Source: Candidatus Altiarchaeota archaeon
GTDB taxonomy: Archaea > SpSt-1190
DNA length: 59,552 bases
Reading direction: 5' to 3'
Assembly: GCA_030590165.1 (NCBI GenBank)
Contig: JAUUZA010000001.1
Span: 1-59,552, forward strand
A program made the position numbers and the translations under genes. Below are positions 1 through 51,543 of this stretch, piece after piece. Below the pieces are notes generated by a model. That model was not told the origin of the DNA, did no database searches, and was given only the letters and a program-made list of their open reading frames with translations. Position 1 is the first letter of the stretch. The number at the start of each line of letters is the position of its first letter.

Positions 1-953
1 AACAAAAAGAAATTATTAATGATTTTAGAGAAAAAAAATATGATGTTCTCATTTCAACATCTGTTGGTGAAGAAGGTCTTGACATTCCCTCTGTTGAAAC
101 TATTATTTTTTATGAACCAGTTGCCAGTGCAATTCGCCATATTCAAAGGAGAGGAAGATTAAGAAAAAATGGTAAAGTTTTCATATTAATAACAAAAAAC
201 ACACGTGAAGAAATTTATTTTTATGTTGCAAGAGCAAAGGAAAGACGAATGATTAAACTCCTAAAATCTTTTTCACCTTCAAAAACGAAGACAAAAAAAC
301 GAAAGCAGCCAACACTTTATTCATATAGCGAAAAACAAAAAATTATTGTTGACGACAGGGAAATTCAAATTGCAACTCACCTCAATAATTTCATAATCAA
401 ACGGCTCGAAATTGCTGACTTCATTGTTAGTGATAGAGTTGCAATTGAACGAAAAACTACCGCTGATTTTATTAAAAGTATAATGGACGGTCGTTTATTC
501 ACTCAGGTTTCAAAATTAAAAGAAACCTATGAAAAGCCCGTAATTATTCTTGAAGGTAGTGGTCTCTTCAAAAAAAGTGGCCTTCACCCAAATGCAATTC
601 GTGGTGCAATGGTCAGTCTTGTAATTGATTGGGGTATCCCAATTTTATTCACAAAAAATGAAGAAGATACTGCTCGAATGATTGAAATATTAGCAAAACG
701 CGAGTGGAAAGAAGGGCGTTCCCCCTCAATAAAAGTCCCAAAAGCAAAAACAATAAAGGAATTTCAAGAATTTCTAATTTCAATGTTACCCTTAATTAAT
801 CTTACTTTAGCAAAAAGGTTATTAGTGTCCTTAGGTTCCCCCTCAGAAGTCTTTAATGCATCAATATTTGAATTGATGAGTATTGAAGGTATTGGACAAG
901 AAAAAGCAAAAAGAATACGTAAAGTATTGGAACAAAAATATAGTGAAAAATAA
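1..953 (+). CDS. hef: Hef-like helicase/nuclease, C-terminal part (5' end outside window): helicase C-terminal motifs, ERCC4/XPF nuclease domain, HhH2
   Basis: Frame 3 is open from the window start. It reads ...ISTSVGEEGLDIPSVETIIFYEPVASAIRHIQRRGRLRKNG (helicase motifs V-VI), then an ERCC4-type nuclease block (DDREIQIA...ERKTTADF...ILEGSG) and a C-terminal helix-hairpin-helix pair (EGIGQEKAKRI). Confidence 0.75.
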   Translation, partial: QKEIINDFREKKYDVLISTSVGEEGLDIPSVETIIFYEPVASAIRHIQRRGRLRKNGKVFILITKNTREEIYFYVARAKERRMIKLLKSFSPSKTKTKKRKQPTLYSYSEKQKIIVDDREIQIATHLNNFIIKRLEIADFIVSDRVAIERKTTADFIKSIMDGRLFTQVSKLKETYEKPVIILEGSGLFKKSGLHPNAIRGAMVSLVIDWGIPILFTKNEEDTARMIEILAKREWKEGRSPSIKVPKAKTIKEFQEFLISMLPLINLTLAKRLLVSLGSPSEVFNASIFELMSIEGIGQEKAKRIRKVLEQKYSEK

Positions 954-2698: not shown

Positions 2699-3883
2699 TC
2701 AACTTTCATTCACTGTTTTCCCAACAAAATATCCGGGGTTAACTGTGTAAATTGGTTGACACATATTGAAAAACTCTTCTTTTCTTGATTCACAATATTC
2801 ATCAGCACAAGGTATCCCCCACTCATTATAAACGCAATATTCAGCAGATTTATTAAAATCAGCCCCATAATAAAACCAAATATAAAAGTGAATATTTTTG
2901 TATGCATTGACTTCAGGGTCCATACCAACAACACTCGCACCCTCAGGAATCTGAGAAAAAGCTTCCTCAGGAATTGCATTGAATGAAAAAACAGACTGAA
3001 CTAAAAACAGATTCATTATTATAATTAAAATAAGTACAATCTCATGCAATCTTTCAGAAATTGCAAACCTGTTCCATTTTTCAGAAATTACAATTGCAAT
3101 ATAAGGAAGAACATCAATAAAAAATCTTTCTTCCTTATGAGGCAGAAGTGTAAAATAAATTAATGCAGCCAAAAAACCAAGAGTGAATCGCGATTTAGAA
3201 AATAAAGCCAGTAATAAAAGAGGGGTCGCAAATAAAACAGTTAAATAAAATGTTGGTTCTTTTTCCCAAAAATCAATATAACTATTATTAATCAATGTTG
3301 ACGCTGCTCTCATTTGAAAAAAGGGACTTCCAAACAAAATCCAGATAACGCTAAAATAAACTGTTAAAGTTAATAATGCACCAATCCATTTTTTCTTATC
3401 TTTCCAACAAATGAAAGGAATTTGTAAAAAATAAGTGAAACGAGTTAATCCAGAAAATGCTGAAAAAACACCTCCAAGAATTCCTGAAAGTGAATAAGCT
3501 AATACAAAAAACAACATTGCGAGTATGTGACTAAGTGGCATATGTGAATGAGCAAAAAAGATTGGATGTGTTGCAATAATTAATCCTAAATACTTTCGTG
3601 AATCTTTAAATTTAAAAAAAGGAACAAGAGGAATAGCAGCAAAAATTAAAAATGCTAAAGCTTTCATAGTGAATGGCATTGGAAGCCCAATTCTCCAAAG
3701 TGCACCAAGTATAATAGGCCAAATTGGTGGACGATAATTGGAAACATAACCATAATTTGAAAATATTGACTTTCCGTATGCTAAATATTCAGAAGGATCC
3801 CATCCAACTACTATTGGTTTCAAAAAAAAAGATATAATTAATAAGGCGTAAAGCAACCAAAAAATTAACAATTTTCTTTGCAA
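2699..3883 (-). CDS. polytopic membrane protein, GT-C-fold glycosyltransferase-like (PMT/ArnT-like), with Cys-rich extracytoplasmic C-terminal domain
   Basis: About 10 predicted TM helices. A first-loop acidic motif GWDPSEY resembles the DE-x-Y loop of GT39/GT83 enzymes. C-terminal soluble segment has 6 Cys. Overlaps the next gene by 19 nt (operon). Confidence 0.35.
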   Translation of the reverse strand: MQRKLLIFWLLYALLIISFFLKPIVVGWDPSEYLAYGKSIFSNYGYVSNYRPPIWPIILGALWRIGLPMPFTMKALAFLIFAAIPLVPFFKFKDSRKYLGLIIATHPIFFAHSHMPLSHILAMLFFVLAYSLSGILGGVFSAFSGLTRFTYFLQIPFICWKDKKKWIGALLTLTVYFSVIWILFGSPFFQMRAASTLINNSYIDFWEKEPTFYLTVLFATPLLLLALFSKSRFTLGFLAALIYFTLLPHKEERFFIDVLPYIAIVISEKWNRFAISERLHEIVLILIIIMNLFLVQSVFSFNAIPEEAFSQIPEGASVVGMDPEVNAYKNIHFYIWFYYGADFNKSAEYCVYNEWGIPCADEYCESRKEEFFNMCQPIYTVNPGYFVGKTVNES

Positions 3884-4500
3884 GCTAACGCCTCCAAATT
3901 ATCCAAACCAAGATAAGCATGACGTTTACCATCAATAATAATTGAAGGATATGAAGTAACATTATAAATTTTAAGAAGGGTATTAGCAACAGGATCATTA
4001 CTAGCTAATTCCATATTCACTGGAAAAATCAATACGTCCTCTTCATATTTTTTCTTTAAGTAAGTAAGTCTTTCAGACATTACATCACACTCCGGACAAT
4101 CAGGACCAAAAAAGAAAAGGATTAAACTATTATTCCAATCGCATTTTTCTTTAAAGTTTTTAGCAAAAAGCCAATATCTAACATTTGAAAGAAAATATTG
4201 ACGATATAAAAGTTGTTGTTGATCAATATCAAAGCGAGCGGCAGAGGTATATTTTTCATATCGTTCAAGTGAATCAGATAAATCCTTAATGGAATCATCA
4301 ATCAGTGGCTTCATTGAAGAACACCCAACATCATCAATCAACTGACTTTGTAAAAATAGTGAAGATGAATAGATTACCAATTCATCAATGTCTGCATCAA
4401 GCTTTTGACGCCTAAGATTATCCCAAAAAAGACCAAAGGACAATCCTGAAAAGAATATTAAAAACGTCAACAAACCAGCCAATATTGCTCTCTTCACCAT
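3865..4500 (-). CDS. membrane-anchored thioredoxin-fold protein (CxxC oxidoreductase)
   Basis: N-terminal TM helix, then a thioredoxin-like segment FFFGPDCPECDV with a CPEC active-site motif. Translationally coupled to both flanking glycosyltransferase genes. Confidence 0.55.
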   Translation of the reverse strand: MVKRAILAGLLTFLIFFSGLSFGLFWDNLRRQKLDADIDELVIYSSSLFLQSQLIDDVGCSSMKPLIDDSIKDLSDSLERYEKYTSAARFDIDQQQLLYRQYFLSNVRYWLFAKNFKEKCDWNNSLILFFFGPDCPECDVMSERLTYLKKKYEEDVLIFPVNMELASNDPVANTLLKIYNVTSYPSIIIDGKRHAYLGLDNLEALACKENC

Positions 4501-5717
4501 TTATTCTCCCTTTTTATCCATGAAACTGTGGCAAGTATTGTTGCCATTGAAAGAGCAAACCCATATGTAATTAAGAAGATTATGGCGTCAAACAAGTTTC
4601 CTCCTTTCTCTTCTGAAAATCTAAATGCAAAATAAAGAAAAGTAGATGTAATCAATAGAGTTACGGCAAAATAAAAAATAGTTTGTGGGTCTAAAATCAA
4701 TAAGTCCGGATTGAACTCTAAATTTAATAAATAAGGCATCCAATCAAAACCAACAGCCCTGAAAAAATAATAAACAGGTTCCATCCACTTAAAAAATCCC
4801 CAAACAAAAATTATGAGAAAGGCAATTGAGACTAAAAAATATAAGGATTTTAGAATAGTTTGACGCCCAAATTCATGTGAAACATTCATAGATTTTGGAT
4901 ACTTCCCAACAACATCAAAAAAACCAAGATGCCACCTTTTTCTCTGAGCTATTAATGTTTTCAAATCCCTAGGAATATCTGTTTTAACTATTGCTCGCGG
5001 ACTCATAATTATTTTATATCCTTTTTTTCTCATTCGATACACTATTTCAAGGTCCTCCGTAACAGAAGTTTCATCAAATCCACCAACTGCGCGTAAAGAC
5101 TCAGTTTTAAATAAGGAAAAGGGCCCAGGTGCAACTAATTGAGCATCAAATCCACTTAAAATATTTGAAAGATAGTTTCCATAAACATATTCAATTGCTT
5201 GAAGTCTTTCTAAAATTCCCTTAGTATTCTTTGCAACAACTGCAGGTGTTACAATATCATTTTCATTAGAAAATTTCAGAAGTTGAGATAAAGCATCTGG
5301 CTCTGCAAAAGAATCAGCATCCATTGTTACAATAAACGGTGCTTTTGTAAGCTTTAAAGCCGTATTAAGTGCTGCTGCTTTTCCCCTATTTTTCTTATGT
5401 TTTATGAGAGTTATTTTCAAATCCTTATGGTCTTTTGCAAACCTCTTGGCTTCAATCAGAGTATTATCTTTTGACCCATCATCAACTAAAATTACCCCTA
5501 ATTTCTCCTTTGAATATTCTAAATTATAAATTGATTTTAATGATTCATAAATATGTTTTTCTTCATTATAAGCAGGTAAGACTAAATCTACACAAACTTC
5601 GTCATTTGGAGATTCTGGTCTAGACTTATCTTCTAAATACATTAAAAGGAAATAAATTGAGATGAAAGTTGACGCTATCATAATAATCCACGAAAATAAC
5701 ATGAAAGGCGTCATCAT
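4494..5717 (-). CDS. membrane-bound family-2 glycosyltransferase with processive-synthase motif set (D, DxD, TED, QxxRW)
   Basis: Motifs LVDDGSKD, TMDADSF, SVTEDLEI and QRKRWHLG, followed by about 4 C-terminal TM helices and 1-2 N-terminal TM helices. The likely start is the internal MMTPFM (ATG at 5717); the track ORF extends to 5819, where it would overlap the divergent kae1 start. Confidence 0.7.
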   Translation of the reverse strand: MMTPFMLFSWIIMIASTFISIYFLLMYLEDKSRPESPNDEVCVDLVLPAYNEEKHIYESLKSIYNLEYSKEKLGVILVDDGSKDNTLIEAKRFAKDHKDLKITLIKHKKNRGKAAALNTALKLTKAPFIVTMDADSFAEPDALSQLLKFSNENDIVTPAVVAKNTKGILERLQAIEYVYGNYLSNILSGFDAQLVAPGPFSLFKTESLRAVGGFDETSVTEDLEIVYRMRKKGYKIIMSPRAIVKTDIPRDLKTLIAQRKRWHLGFFDVVGKYPKSMNVSHEFGRQTILKSLYFLVSIAFLIIFVWGFFKWMEPVYYFFRAVGFDWMPYLLNLEFNPDLLILDPQTIFYFAVTLLITSTFLYFAFRFSEEKGGNLFDAIIFLITYGFALSMATILATVSWIKRENKW

Positions 5718-5762
5718 TAAATTAATTAGTAAAAATCTTAAAATAGCTTTACACTTATTATT

Positions 5763-6719
5763 GTGAAAATAATAGGTATTGAAAGCACGGCACACACTTT
5801 TGGTGCCGGAATGACTCATAATGACAAAGTAATTTCAAATGTTGTTGATATGCACATTCCAAAAGAGGGTGGAATACACCCAAGAAAGGCAGCGGAACAC
5901 CACGCAAAAATAGCTGGAAAAATTATAAAAGAAGCCTTAGTAAAAAAGCCGGATTATGTTGCTTATGCTTGTTGTCCCGGTCTCGGTCCTTGTCTAAAAA
6001 TTGGTGCAGTAATAGCAAAACATCTTGCAATCAAATTCAATATTCCAATAATTCCAGTAAATCATGCAGAAGCACACATTGATATAGGAATAAAAACAAC
6101 TGGGGCAAAAGACCCTTTAATAGTATATATCAGTGGGGGAAACACTCAAATTATTGCGAACCGCAGGGGATGGAAAATCTTTGGAGAAACCCTTGATATT
6201 GCAATAGGAAATGCAATTGATAAACTTGCTCGACACCTAAAGATGGCTCACCCAGGTGGACCAAAATTAGAAAATTTAGCAAGAAATGGAACTTTTATCA
6301 AAATGCCATATACCGTTAAAGGAATGGACCTAAGCTATTCTGGAATTTTAACTCATGCAAAAAATGTACTGAAGACGCATTCAAAAAAAGATGTCGCATA
6401 CAGTTTTCAAGAACATATTTTTTCAATGCTTGTTGAAGTTAGTGAACGCGCCGTCGCTCACACAGGTAAGAAAGAAATTTTACTTGTTGGTGGTGTTGCT
6501 CAAAATTTAAGACTATGTGAAATGTTCAAAATAATGTGTAATGAAAGGGGGATTAAATTAAAAGTTGTCCCACCTGAATTTGCAGGGGATAATGGTGCAA
6601 TGATAGCTTACTCAGGATACCTCAAAGCCAAACAAGGTTTTACAATCCCCATAAAAAAAGTGAATTATTTTCAAAGAATGAGAGTCGACCAAAATTTACA
6701 AGAAATGTTTAAAGTTTAA
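5763..6719 (+). CDS. kae1: tRNA N6-adenosine threonylcarbamoyltransferase Kae1 (KEOPS catalytic subunit), unfused
   Basis: GTG start. (M)KIIGIESTAHTFGAG...HxxAH metal-binding pattern and ASKH-fold layout. 318 aa with no fused Bud32 domain. Confidence 0.85.
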   Translation: MKIIGIESTAHTFGAGMTHNDKVISNVVDMHIPKEGGIHPRKAAEHHAKIAGKIIKEALVKKPDYVAYACCPGLGPCLKIGAVIAKHLAIKFNIPIIPVNHAEAHIDIGIKTTGAKDPLIVYISGGNTQIIANRRGWKIFGETLDIAIGNAIDKLARHLKMAHPGGPKLENLARNGTFIKMPYTVKGMDLSYSGILTHAKNVLKTHSKKDVAYSFQEHIFSMLVEVSERAVAHTGKKEILLVGGVAQNLRLCEMFKIMCNERGIKLKVVPPEFAGDNGAMIAYSGYLKAKQGFTIPIKKVNYFQRMRVDQNLQEMFKV

Positions 6720-7787: not shown

Positions 7788-9971
7788 TTAATCGAGTTCT
7801 TCACTTGTTATGGTTGTTGCACCTGAAGCAGATACAGTAATCATTGACTTTCCTTCTAAGTTAGAAAGAGTCTTTGCACCACTGACATACTGACTCAAGA
7901 TGTAAGCTGCGGCTCTTGTGTCCTTGGCATCCCATCCAGCTACTATCATAGCTTGGACACTCCAAGGAGTTTCGCTAACATCGTATAGTTTAACTACACC
8001 TTTTCCTGTACTTCCATCATATCCGAAGAAAGTTTCAGCATCAGCTGTACTAACTAATTGAGCTGCAATTGCATTTGCGAAAGGTCCACCAACAACTACC
8101 ATTGGGGTAGAGGTCGAAGCTTCACTATCGAGTACTGCAACTTCTGCATTCAATCCACTTAGAATCATCGAAGTTGATCCATCTGAAACTGTGGTTCCAC
8201 CACTAACAGACCCAAGATAGACTTTTGCATAAACCTGTTCATCAGGCACTTCAAAAGCTACTTCGTCGTTCTCAGCTCCAGCGTCAGGATCTTTCACGAT
8301 TATACCGAAAGTAGATCTAACATCTGTTTCCTTTGCTCCAATTTCAATGGAGTCAAGAATTATATCTCCAGCTTCAGCGTCTTCTGTTCCAGAATCATCT
8401 GCAAAAGCACTCAAACCATCAGTGTCATCGGTTACATCAAAGAGCAAATCATCAGTACCAATGGTTAAGATTACTTGTAGATTAACTCCAAAAGTAGCTA
8501 ATGCATCTTTAACTGATATATCAATAGTTGTATCTCCAAATTCACCACTAATTCCTGTAGCCCAAGTAGTATTCCAATCTCCCGTATCTGTTTCGTTACT
8601 TACTGCAAGGTCCCATTTGTTTTCATCTGCATCATACTGAGCAACGTATACACCTGTTGCGTTTGCGTGAATTGCCAATCTCTCATATTCTGTTGAGAAA
8701 GTGTCGTCATCAGGCCCAGTTATAACCATTGAAACTGCGGTATCTGATCCATCAATGTATTTTTCGGAATCTGCAACATCATTGTAGACATCAATTTCAT
8801 CAAACTTAACATCAAATGCACCCATTGTAACATCAGTCAATCCAGTAATTTTCATGGCAGCATAGTCATTCCAGAAATTGAAAGCGTCTCCAACTTCAAA
8901 TGCACCGTCATCTACTGAGTCATAATCAATACTGAGATATGCTCCCAAGTAATTGAGTGTTCCATCAGCATCTACACTAATATTCCATTTCCATGCAACA
9001 TCAGAATCGTCTGCATCTTCGTATCCAATGAAAGCTCCATTGTTATTGTATGATTCACTAAGTTCTTCACCAATTTCAATATCAACACTGTTTTCGGCTT
9101 CACCTACATCGGCGTACCAAATTCCACCCTCTAATACTTTAATTTGAAGGTCACAATCAGTATCGAAGGTATCGCCTTCTTCTATTGCTTCAGAATCTAC
9201 TGCACAACTTGCACCTGAAACTTGTATTCTTGCTTTGTCAGAAGTAATACCTGTAATTTCTACAGTAACTCCATCAACAACAACTGTATCTCCGACATAC
9301 ATAGTGTATTCAGTTGCAGAAGTAAGTGTTATTCTATCTGCGGTTGTTATTTCTGAAATTGAAATACTTCTTCCCATGAACTCAAGTTCAAGTGGGTCAT
9401 CAATGAGAGATGCATTGAATGCATCGTCAAAAACGTAGCTGTATCTAATATCTCCTTCTTCCATAGCAAGGTAGATCTTTGATGCAACAGTACTTCCGTA
9501 TTCATCAACATCATACATTCCACTTCCACCAGTTACACCAGTAATAGCTTTGAGACTTGATGTCCCAATAATTATTTCTTCGTGTATATCGTAGTCATCA
9601 CCGTCATATGTGATTTGTTCATCTAATAAGTAAGGAATTTTATTATCCTTAAATAATGATAACCCTAAACCAGATGCGACAGTCCCTCCAAGAGTTACAT
9701 CATCCTGAAGTCCGCCCGAAACTACTGCATCACCAGCAGTCGAACTTGCAGTTACTACGTGTTGACCAAATGCAGCAGCTATTTGAGCAGCAGCAATAAC
9801 GTCAGGCACAGCAGCACTTGCACCAACAACTATCTGTCCTGCAAATTGTTCATTTGCAATAAATGGAGCAGGTAGTCCTCCAAGGTTTGCAGCCATGGCT
9901 CCAGCCATTGTAGCACCGAGCATTACGATACTACCAGCAGCGACCCCTATTTTTCTTTTTAAGTCTTGCAT
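7788..9971 (-). CDS. putative S-layer / major surface glycoprotein (acidic, Thr/Asp/Gly-rich)
   Basis: 727 aa. N-terminal signal peptide MQDLKRKIGVAAGSIVMLGATMAGAMA, extremely D/E/T/G-rich with no Cys clusters. Strong TATA-like AT box plus GGTGA SD upstream and a hairpin/oligo-T terminator. Local GC is higher than neighbouring DNA, consistent with a highly expressed gene. Confidence 0.5.
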   Translation of the reverse strand: MQDLKRKIGVAAGSIVMLGATMAGAMAANLGGLPAPFIANEQFAGQIVVGASAAVPDVIAAAQIAAAFGQHVVTASSTAGDAVVSGGLQDDVTLGGTVASGLGLSLFKDNKIPYLLDEQITYDGDDYDIHEEIIIGTSSLKAITGVTGGSGMYDVDEYGSTVASKIYLAMEEGDIRYSYVFDDAFNASLIDDPLELEFMGRSISISEITTADRITLTSATEYTMYVGDTVVVDGVTVEITGITSDKARIQVSGASCAVDSEAIEEGDTFDTDCDLQIKVLEGGIWYADVGEAENSVDIEIGEELSESYNNNGAFIGYEDADDSDVAWKWNISVDADGTLNYLGAYLSIDYDSVDDGAFEVGDAFNFWNDYAAMKITGLTDVTMGAFDVKFDEIDVYNDVADSEKYIDGSDTAVSMVITGPDDDTFSTEYERLAIHANATGVYVAQYDADENKWDLAVSNETDTGDWNTTWATGISGEFGDTTIDISVKDALATFGVNLQVILTIGTDDLLFDVTDDTDGLSAFADDSGTEDAEAGDIILDSIEIGAKETDVRSTFGIIVKDPDAGAENDEVAFEVPDEQVYAKVYLGSVSGGTTVSDGSTSMILSGLNAEVAVLDSEASTSTPMVVVGGPFANAIAAQLVSTADAETFFGYDGSTGKGVVKLYDVSETPWSVQAMIVAGWDAKDTRAAAYILSQYVSGAKTLSNLEGKSMITVSASGATTITSEELD

Positions 9972-9998: not shown

Positions 9999-10300
9999 GG
10001 CCTTTCCTCCCTCTCGTTCGGCATTTGCCTATGTTGTTTTCGTCAGAGTCCTCTCTCTAAGAACTCCTACTGTCCAAAGAACATTAGGAGTATAAATTGA
10101 TTCACCCTCTTCTTTATAAACAAAAAGCATTTTTCATTCACTCTCAAGGTACTTGTAAGTTAAAACACTATATAAAGGCGTAATACGCAGTATTATTACA
10201 CTATCTATACACTAAGTTCTTTTGTTAATAATAAAGGGTTTAAACAATCAACCACAAGTAATATATAGATGCTACAAATAATCTCTTTGTGAAGAATATA

Positions 10301-10510
10301 ATGATAAAAAAAGAAGTGTATGAAGAGCTTAAATCCATTAAGGGTGAAAGTAGTTTTTCAGATATGATTGATTCACTTTTCAAAAGTAATGTTGAGTTGC
10401 GTAGAAAAAGTCTTCGTTCATACTTTGGTTCAAAAACAGATAAAGAAATTCGTGAAATAGAAAAAATAATCTCGGAGGTGTTTAGAGTTGCAAAAGGCCG
10501 CTTATTTTGA
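10301..10510 (+). CDS. vapB: VapB-type antitoxin (archaeal PF02697-like)
   Basis: MIKKEVYEELKSIKGESSFSDMIDSLFK matches the archaeal small antitoxin pattern (M.tIsIsdevyekLkklKg..SfSdvI). Overlaps the downstream PIN gene by 23 nt. Confidence 0.6.
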   Translation: MIKKEVYEELKSIKGESSFSDMIDSLFKSNVELRRKSLRSYFGSKTDKEIREIEKIISEVFRVAKGRLF

Positions 10511-10889
10511 TATCCACGCAATAACAAATTTATTACGTGGTAAGAAGGGCATTCTAAATATTATTGAAACTTACCGTGAATTTTATACTGGTTCACTAAT
10601 TGTGACACAATTAATAGGGGCGGAAGACTATCTTGTTGAGAAAAAAATCACAAAAGACAAAAACTTACGCGGTCTCATTGATTCATTTATAATTCTTGAC
10701 TTCACTCGTGAAGACGCAGAAAAAGCAGGTGAAATAATGGGGAAAGTAAAATCAGAAGGAAAGGATATAAGTATTAATGAAGCCATGGTCGCAGCACAAT
10801 GTTTTAGATATGGACTAACTTTAATAACAGGAAACAAAACATTCAATAATCTAAAAAATGCAGTCAAATTAGAAATTAAAATGGTTTAG
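10488..10889 (+). CDS. vapC: PIN-domain ribonuclease, VapC-like toxin
   Basis: 133 aa with an N-terminal acidic FDIHAI and C-terminal ITGNKTF blocks consistent with a PIN fold. TTG start overlapping vapB. Ends with TAG. Confidence 0.5.
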   Translation: MQKAAYFDIHAITNLLRGKKGILNIIETYREFYTGSLIVTQLIGAEDYLVEKKITKDKNLRGLIDSFIILDFTREDAEKAGEIMGKVKSEGKDISINEAMVAAQCFRYGLTLITGNKTFNNLKNAVKLEIKMV

Positions 10890-23748: not shown

Positions 23749-23770
23749 TTATCTAAAATAGACAAACTAC

Positions 23771-23782
23771 TTTTATAATAAC
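23771..23782. promoter_or_regulatory. bidirectional TATA box (TTTTATAATAAC) between tRNA-Arg and the downstream surface-protein gene
   Basis: Lies about 27 nt upstream of the tRNA-Arg 5' end on the minus strand and about 20 nt upstream of the GTG at 23798 on the plus strand (leaderless arrangement). Confidence 0.4.
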
Positions 23783-23797
23783 TGTCCTAAGAATTTT

Positions 23798-25855
23798 GTG
23801 TCGACAACCACCATTCATCATGTTCCAATTCTCTTACAAACTTTGGTTGTCGGGTTGCTAACAGTTCTTGTCGGTTGGAAAATTGCTGCCTTAATTTCAA
23901 ATCCTGTTATTTATCTTGACCCTGCACTTGAAACTGCTGCAAATGAACTTGCAATTGTGTGTGAAGGAAAATTAACTTCAACGACATTGACTCCGCCACC
24001 ACCTGGAGCGAATTATATTATAACAACTTGTTTAGACAAAAGTGCAGCGACCTTGGGATCTACGGCATTCACTCTTTATCAAATGAAAGACCTCATAAAA
24101 AGTGGAAAAGATTTTATTTCTTTTTTCAAATCTCCAAAAAATAATTTAGGAACTCTGTGGAAAAAGTTAGGAAAAGGACTCAACAATCTTGAAGAGGTTG
24201 GTAATTTAAGAAAACCAACTAGTGACCTCTTGGATACTATTGGAGATGTAGGAAACTCTATTGATGATGTCCAAGACGCATTAAAAAGTTTAGAAAATCT
24301 CCCAATTGATAATGTTGACGAAGTAAAAAAGTTACTCACACAAACTGATGACATAAAAGCAAATTTAAAAATTCTTGAAAATTATAAAACCGCAGGGGCA
24401 CCACCTCTAGATCCTAACAGTGAAGAATATGAAAAAATTATAAAAGCAATTAATGACCTTAAATCCCAAACTGCTAGTTTAGAAAATGGTCTCACAAGCT
24501 TTGCTGGTGGTCTAAATAAATTTCTTAAAACAGCAAATAATGCAGGAACTCTTGCCGCTGTTCTTCCAAAAAAATCAAAGGGCCTTACTATTTTCTCTTC
24601 CAAAACTAATAAAGTAATAAGTTCTGCTAAAACAACCTTACTCGATTTAAGTGATTGGCAAGCATCTAAAAATGTTTTCAAAACAATTAATCATGTAATA
24701 ACCTCTATTTCAAGTGGTATTAAGAAGAATAGAAAATCCATTCTTTATGCCAAAAACGCAATGAAATTTGCTCAAGATGTCTCATCTGAAAAAAATAGGC
24801 AAATTATTGATTCATATTTAACAACAAATAGTGAAGTATTCGAAATCTTAGCGGGTTCATTTATTGGGATACCATATTCACCCCTCGTCATAAATATAAT
24901 TAATATGACTGAAGATGATCCAAGGAATGACCGACTAATTGAATTTTCACAATCTGCCTTATATGTGACAGGGGATATGTCTAGTTATACTCGACAATTT
25001 AGAAAAGACAGTTCAACTTTCTTAGCCAGTAGGGGTTATTATCTTACTTCTTCCTTCATAAACGATTTGAATGATTACGAAATTTTAACCTATGACAGTC
25101 AAACGAATATTAATCCTTCAATCTTTTTCAGGCTTGCTTCGGAATTCGCAATCAAGTCAAAACCAATTTGTGAAGAAAGTGAAAATTGCGACACTTACTT
25201 TTCTGACCTTTTTGAATATTCAGTTAATATGAATTTAGATACTACTACTCTCGATGAATTTGAAACAATTTCTAAGTCAAATAATCCTTCAATCATCAAT
25301 CATGAATATCTAAAATTTGCTGATGTATTAAATTTCTTCAAAGAAAAAGATATTGAAGCTGGTCCTGTTTTTGATGACGCCGTTGAAGTTCAAAAAGAGG
25401 TTGGAAGTTGGATGGGTGAAAATTGCGAAACTTCTATTTTAAATCTTGATGAAATTGGTCCTGTTGAAGTAACTTCTTGTGGATTAGTAATTGATTGTTC
25501 ACCTATTGAATTTTGTTATGTTGGTCTCCCAGTAGTGAATGCCGATCCTTGGATTCCTTATATTCCTGTAACTTACTTAGACGGAGATGAGGTTGAAGGA
25601 CTTGGAAATTTAATAGGGATGAACTATGACTCAACAGAAAGGGTAATAACCCCAAAATGGTGGGGAGGGGCCTGTCTAACCCCAAGACAACTTGAACACA
25701 TTTATATTTGTGTATCTTTACCTAGTTTCAGTCGGTGTAAGGTTGTTGACTGTGGGAAACAATTGGATATTGAACCAACAAGATTTACCCCAACAGTAAC
25801 TGCTGAAGATATTGGAGAAAAAATGGAAATAAGGGGGAACTTCGCAACATGGTAA
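23798..25855 (+). CDS. large N-terminally anchored extracellular protein, hypothetical (Cys-rich C-terminal region)
   Basis: 685 aa. GTG start, N-terminal hydrophobic anchor ILLQTLVVGLLTVLVGWKIAALI, long N/S/T-rich middle, about 12 Cys in the last 230 aa. Confidence 0.5.
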   Translation: MSTTTIHHVPILLQTLVVGLLTVLVGWKIAALISNPVIYLDPALETAANELAIVCEGKLTSTTLTPPPPGANYIITTCLDKSAATLGSTAFTLYQMKDLIKSGKDFISFFKSPKNNLGTLWKKLGKGLNNLEEVGNLRKPTSDLLDTIGDVGNSIDDVQDALKSLENLPIDNVDEVKKLLTQTDDIKANLKILENYKTAGAPPLDPNSEEYEKIIKAINDLKSQTASLENGLTSFAGGLNKFLKTANNAGTLAAVLPKKSKGLTIFSSKTNKVISSAKTTLLDLSDWQASKNVFKTINHVITSISSGIKKNRKSILYAKNAMKFAQDVSSEKNRQIIDSYLTTNSEVFEILAGSFIGIPYSPLVINIINMTEDDPRNDRLIEFSQSALYVTGDMSSYTRQFRKDSSTFLASRGYYLTSSFINDLNDYEILTYDSQTNINPSIFFRLASEFAIKSKPICEESENCDTYFSDLFEYSVNMNLDTTTLDEFETISKSNNPSIINHEYLKFADVLNFFKEKDIEAGPVFDDAVEVQKEVGSWMGENCETSILNLDEIGPVEVTSCGLVIDCSPIEFCYVGLPVVNADPWIPYIPVTYLDGDEVEGLGNLIGMNYDSTERVITPKWWGGACLTPRQLEHIYICVSLPSFSRCKVVDCGKQLDIEPTRFTPTVTAEDIGEKMEIRGNFATW

Positions 25856-28085: not shown

Positions 28086-28373
28086 ATGTTTTATAATGTT
28101 TATTTAGTAGTGGCGTTAGAATCTTATATGAAAATTAATTGGGATAAGCCCCAAGCAAACAAGGCCGTTCGAGTCATGGGCTCAGTCCTTATGCTTGAAA
28201 GTTTCATCATTATTTTCCTTTCAATTAGTCGTTTTTCAGACCTCGTCCTTGCAGCTGCATTATTCATTTTAGGAAGAGTAAGTATAATTCTAACTGAAAG
28301 TGATTTTTGGGACAACCTATTTGAACCACATAACAAACAAGTTTATAAAATCAGAAAAGTCAAACATAAATGA
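28086..28373 (+). CDS. small two-TM membrane protein, start-coupled to the ABC ATPase
   Basis: 95 aa, two hydrophobic helices, 4-nt overlap with the next gene. Confidence 0.35.
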   Translation: MFYNVYLVVALESYMKINWDKPQANKAVRVMGSVLMLESFIIIFLSISRFSDLVLAAALFILGRVSIILTESDFWDNLFEPHNKQVYKIRKVKHK

Positions 28374-29332
28374 CTGAAGCTCCTATTGTTTTTGTAAAAA
28401 ATCTTAAGAAAAAATACAAAGATGGAACAATGGCAGTTAAAGGTATTTCATTCAAAATAAAAAAGGGTGAAATTTTTGGCTTTTTAGGGCCTAATGGAGC
28501 CGGAAAAACAACCACAATTAAGATACTCACAACCTTACTAAAACCAACTGAGGGAAAAGCAATAATTTCTGGCGTGGACGTTGAAGAACAATCACACAAA
28601 GTTAGACAAAAAATTGGAGTTGTCTTTCAAACACCTGCCTTAGATTCAAAATTAACAGCTTGGGAAAATCTTGATTTTCACGCAAGACTCTATGGAATAC
28701 CTTCCACAAGAAGAGATAAAAGAATAAAACAAGTCCTCAAACTTGTTGGTCTTAATAAAATCTCAAAAAAATTGGTTGAGAAATTTTCAGGTGGAATGAA
28801 ACGCCGTCTTGAACTTGCCAGAGGTTTAATGCATAATCCTGAAATATTATTCTTAGATGAACCTACTCTTGGATTAGATGTTCAAACCCGTAATAAAATC
28901 TGGGAATACATTATGAAAATTAAAAAAGATGAAAATATGACAATCTTTCTAACAACGCATTATATGGAAGAAGCAGAGAAGGTTTGCGAAAGAATTGCAA
29001 TAATTGATGAAGGAAAAATCTTGAAAATGGGAACGCCACAAGAATTAATTGACGCTTCCTGTCATGGGATTATTACTGTAAAAACTAAGAATAAAATTAA
29101 AAAAAGTTCGAATATTCTAAATGTCAAAAAAATGAATGGAAAAACTTTGATAAAAGTGAAGGATAATAAAAAAATAACAAAAGTGATAAGTGAAATAATG
29201 AAAAAATACGAAGTTGAAGAAATTAGTATTAGTAAGCCTTCACTTGAAGATGTATTTCTTAATCTAACTGGAAAAAGTATAAGGGATGATAAACCACAAA
29301 AAAGAAAATTAAGGATAGGTAGATTCAGATGA
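28370..29332 (+). CDS. ABC transporter ATP-binding protein (ABC-2 / DrrA-like)
   Basis: Walker A GPNGAGKTT, signature LSGGMKRRL, Walker B ILFLDEPTLGLD, H-loop TTHYMEE. Carries a C-terminal extension. Confidence 0.85.
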   Translation: MTEAPIVFVKNLKKKYKDGTMAVKGISFKIKKGEIFGFLGPNGAGKTTTIKILTTLLKPTEGKAIISGVDVEEQSHKVRQKIGVVFQTPALDSKLTAWENLDFHARLYGIPSTRRDKRIKQVLKLVGLNKISKKLVEKFSGGMKRRLELARGLMHNPEILFLDEPTLGLDVQTRNKIWEYIMKIKKDENMTIFLTTHYMEEAEKVCERIAIIDEGKILKMGTPQELIDASCHGIITVKTKNKIKKSSNILNVKKMNGKTLIKVKDNKKITKVISEIMKKYEVEEISISKPSLEDVFLNLTGKSIRDDKPQKRKLRIGRFR

Positions 29333-30072
29333 AAGATAATAGAGAACTCCAATCAATATATGTATCTTGGAAACGAGTGATGATTAGACTCAGTCGTTCA
29401 AAAGGTAGATTATTTGGAACTATGTTTCAACCAGTTTTATTCCTTATTACCTTCGGTCTTGGTTTCCGAAAGGTTGGTGGAAATCTTGAATTTGTTTTAC
29501 CTGGTATCCTTGCAATGAATGCCATAATGTCTTCAGCAATGGCAGGAATTAGTGTTATTTGGGACAGGGAATTTGGGTTCTTAAAAGAAATACTAATAGC
29601 TCCAGTTAGTAGGGCTTCTGCTGTTATTGGACGCAGTCTTGGGGCAATAACAACTGCACTAATCCAAGGTATTTGGATTGGTTTTCTTGGAATTTTATTT
29701 GGAGCTAAAATAAATTATTTAGGAATAATACCTGCCTTTGTATTTTTAAGTTTAATATCCGCCCTTTCAGTTGGAATAGGACTTGCCTTCTCAAGTAAAT
29801 TAAGTGATTTTGAAAGTTTTCAAATTATTCATAATTTAATTATTATGCCTTTAATATTTCTATCATCTGCATTCATAGATGTTTCAACTGCACCAAAATG
29901 GTTAGTTTTTATTACAAAAGTGAATCCATTTAGTTATGGAATTAATGGATTACGGTATTCACTAACAGGAACTGGAACAGTGAATGTATTTTTTGATTTT
30001 GGGGTTATTTCACTTTTTGTGATACTCGCTACAATAATTAGTATACGCCTATTTGAAAAAATTGAGGTTTAG
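29329..30072 (+). CDS. ABC-2 type transporter permease
   Basis: 6 predicted TM helices, ABC-2 family layout, translationally coupled to the ATPase. Confidence 0.7.
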   Translation: MKDNRELQSIYVSWKRVMIRLSRSKGRLFGTMFQPVLFLITFGLGFRKVGGNLEFVLPGILAMNAIMSSAMAGISVIWDREFGFLKEILIAPVSRASAVIGRSLGAITTALIQGIWIGFLGILFGAKINYLGIIPAFVFLSLISALSVGIGLAFSSKLSDFESFQIIHNLIIMPLIFLSSAFIDVSTAPKWLVFITKVNPFSYGINGLRYSLTGTGTVNVFFDFGVISLFVILATIISIRLFEKIEV

Positions 30073-30097: not shown

Positions 30098-30673
30098 TTA
30101 AAGTTCTAAAAGAATTTTCTCAAATTTTCTATATACTAAATACGAAGTAGGTAAGGCTATGATTACTAAAATTGTTAAATATTTTCCGTAAGCATTAATT
30201 AAATGCCAGTTTTCTCCTAAGGTGTAACCACTGAAAGCAAAAACAAAATTCCAGATTATAGTTGCAATTGAATTTAGGAAAATAAATTTTCTTAATGGAA
30301 ATTTTGCTATTGCTGCAGGGAGAGGAATAAACATTCTAAGTGCTGGGATTAATCTTCCAAAAAATACGGCTTTGTCTCCAAATTTCTTGAAGAAATTTTT
30401 TGACATTGTAATTTGTTTTTCTATGAAACTTATTTTGTGAATAAATTTTATTTTTGAGCCCCATAAAAATATTATTAATGAGCCTATGAAATTTAGGATA
30501 CTTCCCCAGAAAGCAACAGTAAGCCAAGAGAAATATCCTCGTGAGGCTAAGAAACCTCCAAAAGGTACGACTATGAAACTTGGGATGGGAATCATCATTC
30601 CTTCAAGAAGAATTGATAAAAGGACGGCAAATAGACCATATTGCTCAAGAATTGGAATAATAAATTCAAACAC
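30098..30673 (-). CDS. DedA/SNARE-associated family membrane protein
   Basis: 191 aa polytopic. The LLEGMMIPIPSFIVVPFGGFLA pattern resembles the DedA core motif. Confidence 0.5.
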   Translation of the reverse strand: MFEFIIPILEQYGLFAVLLSILLEGMMIPIPSFIVVPFGGFLASRGYFSWLTVAFWGSILNFIGSLIIFLWGSKIKFIHKISFIEKQITMSKNFFKKFGDKAVFFGRLIPALRMFIPLPAAIAKFPLRKFIFLNSIATIIWNFVFAFSGYTLGENWHLINAYGKYLTILVIIALPTSYLVYRKFEKILLEL

Positions 30674-30799
30674 TATAAACTTTACAAAATCAAGTATAAA
30701 AGAATTTATTAAAGAAACACTAAAAGTATAAACTTAAACCTAAGCTTCAATTAAATTAAAAAACAATTATTCTCCTTCCAAGACAGTCTTAATATATTA

Positions 30800-48891: not shown

Positions 48892-51543
48892 CTAAATTAC
48901 TTCTCGCATTATCTCATCTTCAGGAGTTCCTTTTATTTTTGGAAGTAAAAATTTCCAGAAAGCAAACCCAAATGCACCCAAAATAAGAGGTATAATTATT
49001 AAAGCAAAATTAAATCCCTCTTCATCTATTTCTTTAAAGAGAATATTTTCTGCATTATTAAACCTCAACTTTGCAGTAGAATAACGATTTTCAGAAATTG
49101 CTTGTTCAGCTTCATTAAGATAATCAACCACATCATAATATTCTCGTTCACTTAACAATTCACGTTTTTCTTCTAGAATCTTTTTATTACGCTCAAGTCG
49201 ATTAATCAACACATTGGCTTCTGCACTAACATATATTTCAATGTCTTCTGAAATGACAATATGAAATGTATTTGAAATAAGTTCAATTTCAATTTCTTCA
49301 GAACCAATATCTGACAAAGACGGTGACATCTCCAACTTAATCTTTGCTTCACCTTTTTCAGTTACAATCTTATTTGGAAGTGAAATCCAAGGAGGACCAG
49401 TGAAAGATAATGAAAAAGCATCATCAAGACCTCCCGTTCTTAAAGTTAAATTAACTATTTGAGAAGAACCTGGAGACACTCCATATTCTTCTTTAAAAAT
49501 TAATTCAGGTTCAAACTTCCCAATATGAACGGTTAACGGAAAATCAATTGAGTGCGTTCTTGTTTTTACATTTATATATACTTGAAGTTCTTCAACTTCA
49601 AAATATTCGGGAGGGCGTAAATCAATTTCTATATCCTTTGAGGAATACGCATCTAAATATATAAATGACCGCATATTAATGATGTCATCACTTGGTTCAA
49701 AATCAATTTCAAACCCTTCACCAGCATTATTCTTTAAAATATATTCATAAGAAACTGACTCTCCTGAAATTGCTTTTAGTTCATAGGGTCCAATTAATTC
49801 AATGACTTTCGGACCCTCAACAAAAACGGTTTTTGTAACCTCTCTGTCATCAAGAGTACTTAAATCAATTGAAAATAATATTAAATTTACTTCATCAACA
49901 CTTGAACAAGTCTCAGACATATCTGTCCCAACATCTTCTAATTCATTTTCAAAAGAAATTAAAAATAAATAAAGGTCTTCACGTTCATTTCTAAAATATT
50001 CAGAATCTTCTTCCTCTTGAATTCCTTCTACAAAATCTTCAATAATTCCTAAAAGCCTTTCAGTATCTGAAAATAAACTATTTGCTTCTTCTGATGTCAT
50101 TTTTAATTTTTCAGCATCAACTATATCTTTAAGAGTTAAAAGGGTTTCAATTTCAAGAGTATTTAAATTGGCTGTTAATTCATAAACTACTTTTCCCAAC
50201 ATCCAAACCTTTCTACCGGCATTAAATGCTCTTGTATTATCTTCAGTCATTGCACATGACCCCCCTACATCAAACTCAACTACATCTCTATTTATTTCAC
50301 CTACTTCAGCAATGAGTGAACTTACTCCTCTCCTAATATAAAGAGCTGGTTCAGTATAAACATAATAAAACATTAAGGGTGAAACAGTTCCAGAAGAATA
50401 AACTACAACTGAAAAATTATTTTCCTCATATGCATTCACTTCCGATATATCTCTTAAATTCACTTCTAAATTTGATTGTGTTTGAGGTCGTAAAACTAAA
50501 TCAAATGTTTTAATTCCAAGTTCCTCGGATGAAACATTAAATTGAAGTGTTTGTGAACCAATTTGAAGTTCAGGAACAGTATAAGATAATTTAATAACTT
50601 TTTCTCCCCCCTTATCAATAGTTCCAGGGTCAGTAACAGATAAAGACCAACCAGCCAATTCACCAAGACCAACACCCAAAACATCAACAAACACATCAAA
50701 TTCATCTAATAAAGAACCTGTATTTTTTAGTAATAAATCTAAAGAATAACTTTCCCCTGGTCTGAATTTTGGAATTTCAGGAACTTCAAGTTCAAAATCA
50801 TAAAATAAAAAAGTTTCATCAAATAATAAAAATGACTTTGTCTCAGTTTTTGCAACAACATAGGTAGTGTATATACCTCTTGAAACATTCAAACTTTCAT
50901 ATTCAAATCTACTTTCCTTAATTATTTCATCAGAACCAGAACCACTTGCATGAAGATCAACACGTGTAGATTCTTTCAATTCATTATCTAAAAAAACAGA
51001 AATAAAAACTTCTAAATCTTCAACCTCATTATTTTTTAAATCAAATTCAAATTTATGTGTTGATTGATTAAAATTTACTTCAGCATTTAAATTCAAAAGA
51101 GAATCATCCAAAAATAAATCATTCACTAATTCCCAATTAGCTTGACTACATTTTGGGTAACCTTCACTATCATTCACAACAAGTCTAAAAAATATTGGTC
51201 TATCGTCCGACCAAGTTGATGGGATAAAATAAGAATAATTTACGCCTGCATGAATTAGACTAACTAAAGGATAATTAAATCCGGGAAGAATTTGTGTTTC
51301 TGCCCCAGCAGAAGTCGCAAAAGAAAAATCAGGGATATATTTCACTTGGTCCTCTTCAGATACCACATCTAAAGTTATGAATCCTGAACTTTCCCTATAT
51401 TTTGAAGCATTAAAATAAATTACAAAATCTGAACAATCTTTCTCACTACATCTATCTTCAAAATCAGCCCATTCAAATTCATCAAAGGTACAAGAAGCAA
51501 AAATTACTGAAAAAAGTAGAAACATTATTAATATTTTTTTCAC
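48892..51543 (-). CDS. large surface protein with lipobox-like signal and C-terminal TM anchor
   Basis: 883 aa. MKKILIMFLLFSVIFASC (lipobox-like FASC), a long beta-rich ectodomain with repeated V/E/L-rich segments, C-terminal helix ALIIIPLILGAFGFAFW and a short basic tail. 4-nt overlap with rfcS. Confidence 0.5.
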   Translation of the reverse strand: MKKILIMFLLFSVIFASCTFDEFEWADFEDRCSEKDCSDFVIYFNASKYRESSGFITLDVVSEEDQVKYIPDFSFATSAGAETQILPGFNYPLVSLIHAGVNYSYFIPSTWSDDRPIFFRLVVNDSEGYPKCSQANWELVNDLFLDDSLLNLNAEVNFNQSTHKFEFDLKNNEVEDLEVFISVFLDNELKESTRVDLHASGSGSDEIIKESRFEYESLNVSRGIYTTYVVAKTETKSFLLFDETFLFYDFELEVPEIPKFRPGESYSLDLLLKNTGSLLDEFDVFVDVLGVGLGELAGWSLSVTDPGTIDKGGEKVIKLSYTVPELQIGSQTLQFNVSSEELGIKTFDLVLRPQTQSNLEVNLRDISEVNAYEENNFSVVVYSSGTVSPLMFYYVYTEPALYIRRGVSSLIAEVGEINRDVVEFDVGGSCAMTEDNTRAFNAGRKVWMLGKVVYELTANLNTLEIETLLTLKDIVDAEKLKMTSEEANSLFSDTERLLGIIEDFVEGIQEEEDSEYFRNEREDLYLFLISFENELEDVGTDMSETCSSVDEVNLILFSIDLSTLDDREVTKTVFVEGPKVIELIGPYELKAISGESVSYEYILKNNAGEGFEIDFEPSDDIINMRSFIYLDAYSSKDIEIDLRPPEYFEVEELQVYINVKTRTHSIDFPLTVHIGKFEPELIFKEEYGVSPGSSQIVNLTLRTGGLDDAFSLSFTGPPWISLPNKIVTEKGEAKIKLEMSPSLSDIGSEEIEIELISNTFHIVISEDIEIYVSAEANVLINRLERNKKILEEKRELLSEREYYDVVDYLNEAEQAISENRYSTAKLRFNNAENILFKEIDEEGFNFALIIIPLILGAFGFAFWKFLLPKIKGTPEDEIMREVI

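Follow-up and report, generated by a model that had tools for sequence, protein, structure and literature searches.

A stretch of 59,552 nucleotides from Candidatus Altiarchaeota archaeon SpSt-1190 (positions 1 to 59,552, forward strand, of contig JAUUZA010000001.1, GenBank assembly GCA_030590165.1; hereafter the window) carries three mutually overlapping open reading frames (ORFs), all on the minus strand, that span positions 2699-5717 and were delineated from the ORF table and the reverse-strand sequence. They encode a synthase-type family 2 glycosyltransferase (GT2), a membrane-anchored thioredoxin-fold (Trx) protein and a glycosyltransferase of the predicted GT-C fold. We propose that this trio is the conserved core of a cell-surface glycoconjugate assembly cassette of DPANN archaea, probably for glycoproteins, a reading in which we find confidence and doubt to be evenly balanced. 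The features of the locus are the following.

4494-5717, minus strand: GT2, synthase-type family 2 glycosyltransferase, 407 amino acids, ATG start at 5717
4494-4500, minus strand: 7-nucleotide overlap ATGGTGA between the GT2 stop and the Trx start, with Trp-stop of GT2 over Met-Val of Trx, read in the sequence
3865-4500, minus strand: thioredoxin-fold protein with a membrane anchor, 211 amino acids, from the ORF table
3865-3883, minus strand: overlap between the Trx stop (TAA) and the GT-C start, 19 nucleotides with TTG 3883 or 7 nucleotides with TTG 3871
2699-3883, minus strand: predicted GT-C fold glycosyltransferase, 394 amino acids, TTG start
5718-5762, no strand: divergent intergenic gap of 45 bp between GT2 and Kae1/TsaD, the latter with GTG at 5763 (canonical MKIIGIES start)
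5738-5745, no strand: weak candidate TATA-like element TATTTTAA, ~25 nucleotides upstream of the GT2 ATG

The full GT2 ORF extends over 4494-5819; the ATG at 5717 agrees with the length and N-terminus of the homologues, 17 of which, at 401-407 amino acids, back this start. As annotated by NCBI, the protein has 382 amino acids and is devoid of the N-terminal membrane helix. For the GT-C gene, homologue N-termini (MLAFW or MRKELLAFW) allow either TTG 3883 or TTG 3871, and the latter fits the N-termini of several homologues. A preliminary description of the locus had reported three overlapping co-directional genes with overlaps of 7 and 19 nucleotides, and both overlaps are read in the sequence, the second given the start at TTG 3883. 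The form of the ATGGTGA junction implies that the GT2 and Trx genes are likely to be translationally coupled. Conceivably, the TATA-like TATTTTAA could drive a leaderless GT2 transcript, a weak inference in a genome with 33% G+C.

A scan of the GT2 alignment against one genome per GTDB species yielded 80 loci, in which neighbour genes were detected by hidden Markov model (HMM) searches on six-frame ORFs; the denominators for linkage are the loci with enough flanking sequence (74 for Trx, 69 for GT-C). A Trx family ORF lies directly downstream of GT2, on the same strand, in 72 of the 74 loci, and a GT-C ORF adjoins in 44 of the 69 loci with a narrow profile and in 61 with a broadened one. The 7-nucleotide junction type, in which the Trx start lies over the last Trp codon and the stop of GT2, is kept in 37 of 73 other DPANN loci. 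The GT2 family nearly always ends in Lys-Trp-stop ([AG]TGGT[AG][AG] in 66 of 78 loci, among L009-L088), with W407 invariant in an alignment of 38 homologues; the overlapping Trx start may constrain the last codons of GT2, or the reverse. For the converse test, seeded with Trx and run on metagenome contigs, the diverse Trx alignment was too variable for a scan of the collection, and a narrower one was taken that covers mainly a Woesearchaeota-type subclade; GT2 is found upstream in 44 of the 45 loci recovered in this manner and GT-C downstream in 44 of 44. Because homologues at E<1e-80 exist for each of the three proteins and the gene order recurs in ~70 species-level genomes, the arrangement is far beyond what chance would be expected to produce. 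The linkage counts in both directions, combined with the conserved junction, are strong evidence that the trio, kept together in ~70 species-level DPANN genomes, is a functional unit, and they point to a putative 1:1 GT2-Trx complex.

It is accordingly very improbable, in our estimate, that the three genes have no functional link, the Trx protein being a general extracytoplasmic disulfide oxidoreductase that shares the transcript and the gene order being a product of slow rearrangement. Such an explanation can draw on the clade of the window, where the whole neighbourhood (S-layer, L10e, Kae1, the trio, PCNA and Hef) is syntenic, and on one relative in which DsbD_2 and DsbA-like genes just downstream hint at a general redox system. 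Over phylum-level distances, however, the flanks change and the trio stays (72/74 and 61/69 loci), the Trx-seeded loci recover GT2 and GT-C (44/45 and 44/44), and the 7-nucleotide overlap persists in half of the loci. In the close relatives (43-63% GT2 identity), the GT2-Trx-GT-C order is kept together with the S-layer, L10e, Kae1, PCNA and Hef flanks; the conserved order in these genomes was rejected as linkage evidence since the housekeeping flanks are equally syntenic, and the phylum-wide analysis was used instead. The same synteny bears on the proximity to an S-layer gene to which the preliminary description had drawn attention: the gene is real (7788-9971, a match to PF05124), but its proximity is no evidence of a link to the trio, since the neighbourhood is syntenic as a whole in the close clade.

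In the GTDB species scan, the nearest relative of the GT2 comes from an Undinarchaeota bin (51% identity); the other carriers include Woesearchaeota, Nanoarchaeota, Aenigmatarchaeota, Nanopusillaceae, Nanoclepta and bins labelled 'Altiarchaeota'. Many carrier records are titled 'uncultured Methanosarcinales archaeon' (L014, L021, L023, L026-L030 and others; 31-39% identity), labels that are probably wrong because the cassette is of the DPANN type and the identity is like that of the Woesearchaeota and Nanoarchaeota loci. A word-indexed search gave 12-13 relatives, as if the Trx and GT-C pair were lineage-specific, and the HMM searches revealed this to be a sensitivity artefact.

The GT2 protein matches PF00535 (2.9e-31), PF13641 (7e-26) and PF13632 (1e-23) in Pfam. 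Its translation contains VDDGS, MDADS, TEDLE and QRKRW and ends in KW-stop, and the residues D80, D133/D135, E221/D222 and Q258-R259-x-R261-W262 are invariant in the profile of 38 homologues. Hydropathy places one N-terminal and three or four C-terminal transmembrane (TM) helices around a cytoplasmic GT-A domain. This predicted architecture is that of membrane-integrated synthases; translation, invariance and hydropathy all agree with the motif set (DDG, DAD, TED, QRKRW) and the flanking TM helices noted in the preliminary description. The best NCBIfam model is PgaC_IcaA, with 151 bits over positions 9-386 of 407, almost the entire protein; among the models of polyprenyl-phosphate-sugar transferases, AglJ gives 33 bits and ArnC 38. 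When the GT2 profile is compared with the sequences of PDB entries, the alignments run through QxxRW into the membrane part only for BcsA (12-310), hyaluronan synthase (HAS; 84-359), chitin synthases (up to 129-410) and, weakly, ceramide glucosyltransferase, whereas the matches to DPMS, ArnC and the sll0501 GT2 are confined to the nucleotide-binding half (positions ~40-176). The assignment to the synthase type made in the preliminary description is thus upheld: the matches to the AglJ/DPM1-like clade, the alternative placement that it had considered, cover the N-terminal half alone.

The GT2 is nevertheless well under every equivalog cut-off (PgaC_IcaA, 151 vs 422; NodC, 71 vs 550; CelA, 80 vs 699), so that the curated equivalog scores do not make it an orthologue of a characterised synthase, and 'processive' is a label derived from motifs. 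PgaC/IcaA, NodC, class I HAS, chitin synthase and BcsA are like the GT2 in combining a GT-A domain, the D, DxD, TED and QxxRW set, and TM helices on both sides, and in PgaC-PgaD, IcaA-IcaD and BcsA-BcsB a small membrane partner is encoded alongside, as it is in the GT2-Trx pair. Unlike PgaD and BcsB, the partner here is an unrelated thioredoxin-fold CxxC protein, and, unlike the known synthase systems, the trio comes without a cyclic diguanylate module, deacetylase or porin.

These similarities are the substance of the explanation under which the trio is a free exopolysaccharide synthase operon: a processive GT2, akin to the synthases of poly-N-acetylglucosamine, chitin or cellulose, would extrude a polymer via its own channel, the Trx protein would be a co-polymerase or guide subunit like BcsB, PgaD/IcaD or Alg44, and the GT-C protein would merely decorate the product. 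The complete and invariant motif set, the full-length best match to PgaC/IcaA, the profile alignment that extends across the membrane part of BcsA, HAS and chitin synthases, the strict GT2-Trx adjacency and the translational coupling all speak for it, and, because the GT2 has just four or five TM helices, a helix of the partner could complete the channel. Two remote GT-C homologues fused to polysaccharide-deacetylase or DUF2334 domains (see below) are a further point in its favour. We nonetheless regard it as unlikely: apart from the scores far under the equivalog cut-offs, the cassette is without the export, deacetylase and hydrolase genes typical of exopolysaccharide operons, the invariant CxxC and cis-Pro of the Trx protein would be needless in a purely structural co-polymerase, and bulk exopolysaccharide would presumably be costly for ultra-reduced host-attached carriers such as Nanoclepta and Nanopusillaceae. 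The neighbours of the trio in other lineages, described below, also favour lipid-linked or protein glycosylation.

The best single-sequence match of the GT2 in PDB is the mannosyltransferase PcManGT (6yv7) of Pyrobaculum calidifontis (E 1.5e-22), in an alignment that ends at about residue 250, ahead of QRxRW and of the TM region; the family profile ranks chondroitin synthase first and PcManGT second (9e-32). PcManGT is, like the GT2, archaeal and membrane-bound; it has 355 amino acids, and nothing in the alignment corresponds to the N-terminal TM helix of the GT2. We know of no Trx partner of PcManGT, which we take to be dolichyl-phosphate dependent. This match to a membrane GT2 is one of two observations that would suit a three-component system of the Gtr/Arn type, in which the GT2 would be a polyprenyl-phosphate-sugar synthase similar to DPM1, GtrB, ArnC or AglJ and would feed the GT-C enzyme; the other is the GT2 plus GT-C pair itself, the classic layout of GtrB/GtrC, ArnC/ArnT, DPM1/PMT and CsbB/YfhO. 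We consider this alternative quite unlikely. The matches to AglJ, ArnC, DPMS and sll0501 cover the nucleotide-binding half alone, the invariant QRxRW, the N-terminal TM helix and the three or four C-terminal TM helices are foreign to that clade, and a separate small GT2 resembling a dolichyl-phosphate-hexose transferase is present in 16 loci, which would make the role redundant for the large GT2. The identity of the GT2 as a dolichyl-phosphate-sugar synthase was rejected because of the profile coverage and the motifs (QRxRW and the N-terminal TM helix being present). In the Gtr, Arn and CsbB-YfhO systems, an extracytoplasmic GT-C enzyme modifies a pre-made glycoconjugate and is fed with the polyprenyl-phosphate sugar made by a small GT2; unlike these, the cassette of the window has no small dolichyl-phosphate-sugar synthase and no GtrA-like flippase, and its synthase-type GT2 and Trx protein are absent from those systems. 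The title of the PcManGT paper, as cited in PMC8993221, relates that enzyme to N-glycan biosynthesis and a minimal cellulose-synthase-like fold.

Another possible function is suggested by the Pfam family Glyco_transf_21, which the GT2 matches with 53.5 bits (gathering score, 21.7), and by a weak match of the profile to ceramide glucosyltransferase in PDB (positions 4-267, a stretch that takes in QxxRW as well as the N-terminal TM helix). A GT2 of the GT21 or ceramide-glucosyltransferase type would glycosylate a membrane lipid, perhaps host-derived archaeol, with the GT-C enzyme extending the head group, a scheme that would be in keeping with the reliance of DPANN archaea on scavenged lipids. 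The GT21 and ceramide-glucosyltransferase scores (53.5 and 34.5 bits) are, however, well under those of PgaC, BcsA and HAS (151, 98 and 74 bits), and a glycolipid synthase leaves the obligate Trx partner and the STT3-like neighbours in other lineages unexplained; we therefore hold it to be distinctly improbable.

The 211-residue protein scores 25.8 bits against Pfam Thioredoxin (PF00085), just over the gathering score of 23.5. In its AlphaFold2 model (predicted local distance difference test score, pLDDT, 76), a long N-terminal helix precedes a helical hairpin (60-87 and 92-120), one end of which bears both Cys60 and Cys120; residues 125-207 then form a minimal thioredoxin fold (beta1-alpha1-beta2-alpha2-beta3-beta4-alpha3). 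The C135-P-E-C138 motif is located at the start of helix alpha1 (136-155), cis-Pro185 immediately precedes strand beta3 (186-189), and the C-terminal tail is C207xxxC211. The top 50 Foldseek matches in PDB are all thioredoxins or thioredoxin-fold proteins, some of them fusions or complexes, with probability 1.0 and target-normalised TM-scores mostly of 0.55-0.77 (lower for fusion and multi-domain entries). A thioredoxin-fold, redox-type domain is therefore predicted with a membrane anchor, so that Pfam, the model and Foldseek concur with the CPEC protein of the preliminary description. In a set of 76 distinct members of the family, drawn from many DPANN lineages, CxxC is conserved in 75, cis-Pro in 74, C60 in 73 and C120 in 75, and a C-terminal Cys pair is usual; the middle residues of CxxC vary (CPSC, CPIC, CPEC and others).

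The flanks of the Trx anchor differ in charge, with a median net charge of +2.5 on the N side and -2 over the 15 residues that follow, and the N side is the more positive one in 72 of the 76 members. Given this bias and the positive-inside rule, the anchor would be oriented N-in/C-out and the Trx domain would reside outside the cell; the three conserved Cys pairs, an even Cys number, are consistent with that location. A redox partner of the DsbB, VKOR or CcdA type was sought in the window without success; the polytopic candidates there have no Cys. At locus L003:6682-10689 (JAAOXW010000025.1, a contig shared with L010 and labelled 'Altiarchaeota'), redox genes directly follow the cassette, namely those for an HMA+DsbD_2 protein, an FtrD-like protein and two DsbA-like proteins. 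Together they may constitute a thiol-redox system outside the cytoplasm, which could in turn serve the Trx partner.

The 394-residue protein matches Pfam Glyco_transf_22 (PF03901) with a score of 34.3 against a gathering score of 23.8, over residues 210-295 only (86 residues, profile positions 266-359 of 414). Neither the single sequence nor the profile matched any PDB sequence, and fold comparison alone gave matches. The AlphaFold2 model, built from 13 homologues, has a pLDDT of 89.9 and a predicted template modelling score of 0.89; its top structural match is ALG12, and the identity to the structural matches is 5-14%. An exhaustive profile search retrieved 520 relatives, of which the remote ones carry PMT_2 and Glyco_transf_22, matching PMT_2 as well as GT22 or better. 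The protein is thus predicted to have the GT-C membrane fold, and by analogy with the superfamily it would use a polyprenyl-phosphate sugar donor. Compared with ALG12/ALG9 (GT22), PIG-M, ArnT and PMT, it is shorter and has its own C-terminal domain of ~90 residues with two to four paired Cys. Two of the remote homologues (P0237 and P0251, ~810 amino acids) are fusions of the GT-C membrane domain with DUF2334 or polysaccharide-deacetylase domains, which hints that some members of the family act on polysaccharide.

In the first outer loop, D29, Y33, K38 and R51 are each conserved in 52 of 52 members and W28 in 51; an R51-P52 pair and an HKEERF motif are also present. D29 corresponds to the catalytic acidic residue in loop 1 of GT-C enzymes, and this homology, along with the positive-inside pattern, suggests that loop 1 faces outward. 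The pattern of Lys- and Arg-rich loops fits an odd number of membrane spans, with the acidic C-terminal domain outward. That domain has four Cys within the final 45 residues in the window protein, and two or four Cys occur in the last 110 residues of 59 of the 63 family members, so that, by Cys parity and the positive-inside rule together, it is probably outside the cell. The model, the fold match and the remote Pfam match hence concur with the polytopic GT-C-like protein of the preliminary description, and charge bias and Cys parity place both its Cys-rich domain and the CxxC of the Trx protein on the outer side, as that description had anticipated.

Outside the clade of the window, the trio has neighbours of a particular kind. 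Clustering of the neighbour ORFs disclosed two tandem paralogous membrane proteins, of ~500 amino acids each, 5' of GT2. In 49 of 68 loci, GT2 is directly preceded on its own strand by at least one STT3/AglB-like ORF, usually a tandem pair; of the Trx-seeded loci, 37 of 38 have an STT3-like gene upstream. Matches of the family profile are to STT3 (E 1.4e-11), PglB (1e-7) and also AglB C-terminal domains. An example of the pair is

L017:2404-5418, plus strand: tandem STT3/AglB/PglB-like pair, identified by profile

and the pair is likewise present in L014, L019, L022, L025, L030, L031, L044, L046, L064, L075 and L088. The distal copy often has [DE]SYFHLR, which presumably resembles the loop-1 motif of STT3, and in the proximal copy a degenerate SH[YQ]xxG[FY]WI takes the place of WWDYG. 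Sixteen of the 80 loci contain a small GT2 similar to dolichyl-phosphate-hexose transferase, ArnC, PgfS or AglJ; these are soluble proteins of ~230 amino acids, and in four examples (L088:11430-12158, L036:9825-10667, L016:3792-4511 and L023:11658-12413) they are encoded next to the trio. A PAP2 phosphatase is encoded inside the cassette or adjoining it, after GT-C, also in 16 of the 80 loci (for example, L030:11521-11994). DUF362 and UbiA-like ORFs were observed in 20 of the 80 loci.

A neighbourhood with this predicted content is what one would typically see where proteins or other surface molecules are glycosylated outside the cytoplasm from lipid-linked precursors, and is atypical of a stand-alone exopolysaccharide operon. 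Because the STT3/AglB-like pair and sometimes a dolichyl-phosphate-hexose-synthase-like GT2 or a PAP2 phosphatase flank the trio elsewhere, a surface glycan attached to protein or lipid is a likelier end product than free exopolysaccharide. The cautious functional assignment of the preliminary description, to a surface glycan or to protein glycosylation, therefore stands, with the STT3/AglB-like neighbours tilting it towards a glycoprotein or another surface glycan.

Several observations weigh against the proposal of a glycoconjugate assembly cassette. None of the STT3-like neighbours contains the canonical WWDYG, which raises the possibility that they are something other than genuine oligosaccharyltransferases. 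Beside the trio in the window's own clade, neither an STT3-like gene nor a dolichyl-phosphate-sugar synthase or PAP2 was found, and the same holds across the 59.5-kb window, which also contains no further GT2 or GT-C gene. The Trx protein, with its single N-terminal TM helix and C-terminal Trx domain, shows no kinship to Ost3/6 in sequence or architecture, and the topologies of the Trx and GT-C proteins are predictions from the positive-inside rule and Cys parity.

The parallel with Ost3/6 comes from the eukaryotic oligosaccharyltransferase (OST). In Ost3/6 the Trx domain comes first and four TM helices come after it; the Trx protein has the reverse order, with an N-terminal TM helix, the helical hairpin and a C-terminal Trx domain. 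There is no Ost3, Ost6, TUSC3 or MagT1 among the sequence or fold matches of the Trx protein, which gives no indication that it is an OST subunit. In Ost3p/Ost6p, TUSC3 and MagT1, a membrane-bound, non-cytoplasmic CxxC Trx domain is positioned beside a GT-C enzyme (PMC8191290), as proposed here, and in the eukaryotic OST, Ost3p/Ost6p hold Cys-containing acceptor proteins opposite the active site of STT3 (PMC8191290). In most DPANN loci outside the clade of the window, the Trx gene is two genes downstream of the STT3-like genes, an OST-like context; unlike in OST, its tightest linkage is to GT2 and not to the STT3-like genes. The resemblance is thus best described as a putative functional analogy, not membership.

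Under the proposed mechanism of the surface glycoconjugate cassette, the GT2, an inverting enzyme, would add one or more beta-linked sugars from a nucleotide sugar at the cytoplasmic face; N-acetylhexosamine is a conceivable substrate, on our assumption that the motifs are comparable to those of chitin synthase and NodC. The QRxRW site would bind the acceptor where the enzyme meets the membrane, and the product would pass into or across the bilayer. The 211-residue protein would be the dedicated, translationally coupled partner of the GT2, in a complex suggested by their co-occurrence, and its Trx domain would make, break or hold disulfides on the outer face. Likely targets would be the Cys-paired outer domain of the GT-C protein, in folding or regulation, or Cys-containing acceptor proteins, as with Ost3/6. 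The GT-C protein, to judge by the chemistry of its superfamily, would move a sugar from a dolichyl-phosphate sugar to the glycan or glycoprotein outside the cell. A more far-reaching version, which we consider doubtful, is that DPANN archaea glycosylate outside the cytoplasm with a machine of several subunits resembling that of eukaryotes. The Trx protein would in this case be a functional counterpart of Ost3/6 of independent origin; it would work with STT3- and ALG-like GT-C proteins and be coupled, physically and in translation, to a synthase-type GT2 that both builds the glycan and delivers it across the membrane.

The rest of the window includes a few further features of interest. Two large ORFs with hydrophobic segments and no Pfam match, at 23762-25852 (plus strand, 697 amino acids, 13 Cys) and 48895-51570 (minus strand, 892 amino acids, 8 Cys), possibly encode disulfide-bonded surface proteins. 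A candidate ABC-2 transporter pair (28370-30069, plus strand) adjoins a gene for a DedA/VTT-domain membrane protein (30101-30733, minus strand); the Pfam scan covered the permease (29323-30069) of this pair, whose upstream ORF lies at 28370-29329. Export of glycans is a frequent role of ABC-2 transporters, and a part in the recycling of polyprenyl phosphate has been ascribed to DedA proteins. At 10289-10889 (plus strand), overlapping ORFs of 73 and 133 amino acids occupy the place where the syntenic contig L001 has a gene of the VapB antitoxin family, and these neighbours of the S-layer gene are likely to be a toxin-antitoxin pair. The window begins within an ORF (1-953, plus strand) that is apparently the ERCC4/HhH C-terminal part of a Hef-type helicase-nuclease, an identity that derives from synteny with L001, where the protein has 681 amino acids. 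The sole Rfam matches in the window are four tRNAs.

Each component of the cassette belongs to a known superfamily, and it is the conserved combination that appears to be undescribed: a search of the available literature found no description of a GT2-Trx-GT-C cassette, and the Undinarchaeota paper contains none of the relevant terms. The chief novelty appears to be the association of a synthase-type GT2 with an obligate CxxC thioredoxin partner that is predicted to be extracytoplasmic. The sole close parallel to this pairing is the Ost3/6 subunit of the eukaryotic oligosaccharyltransferase. If the more far-reaching version of the mechanism is correct, GT2 and Trx would represent a type of glycan synthase complex not seen before, the output of which depends on thiol-disulfide chemistry.

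The genomes of DPANN archaea are minimal, yet ~70 species-level lineages retain the cassette, including the cultivable ectosymbionts Nanoclepta and Nanopusillaceae. As a target of three genes and ~3 kb, it is small enough to be expressed, and could be used to address which glycan DPANN archaea display and whether redox control of glycosylation has arisen repeatedly. The retention of the cassette and the shared junction suggest that it is core to the building of the DPANN cell surface, which is the site of contact with the host.

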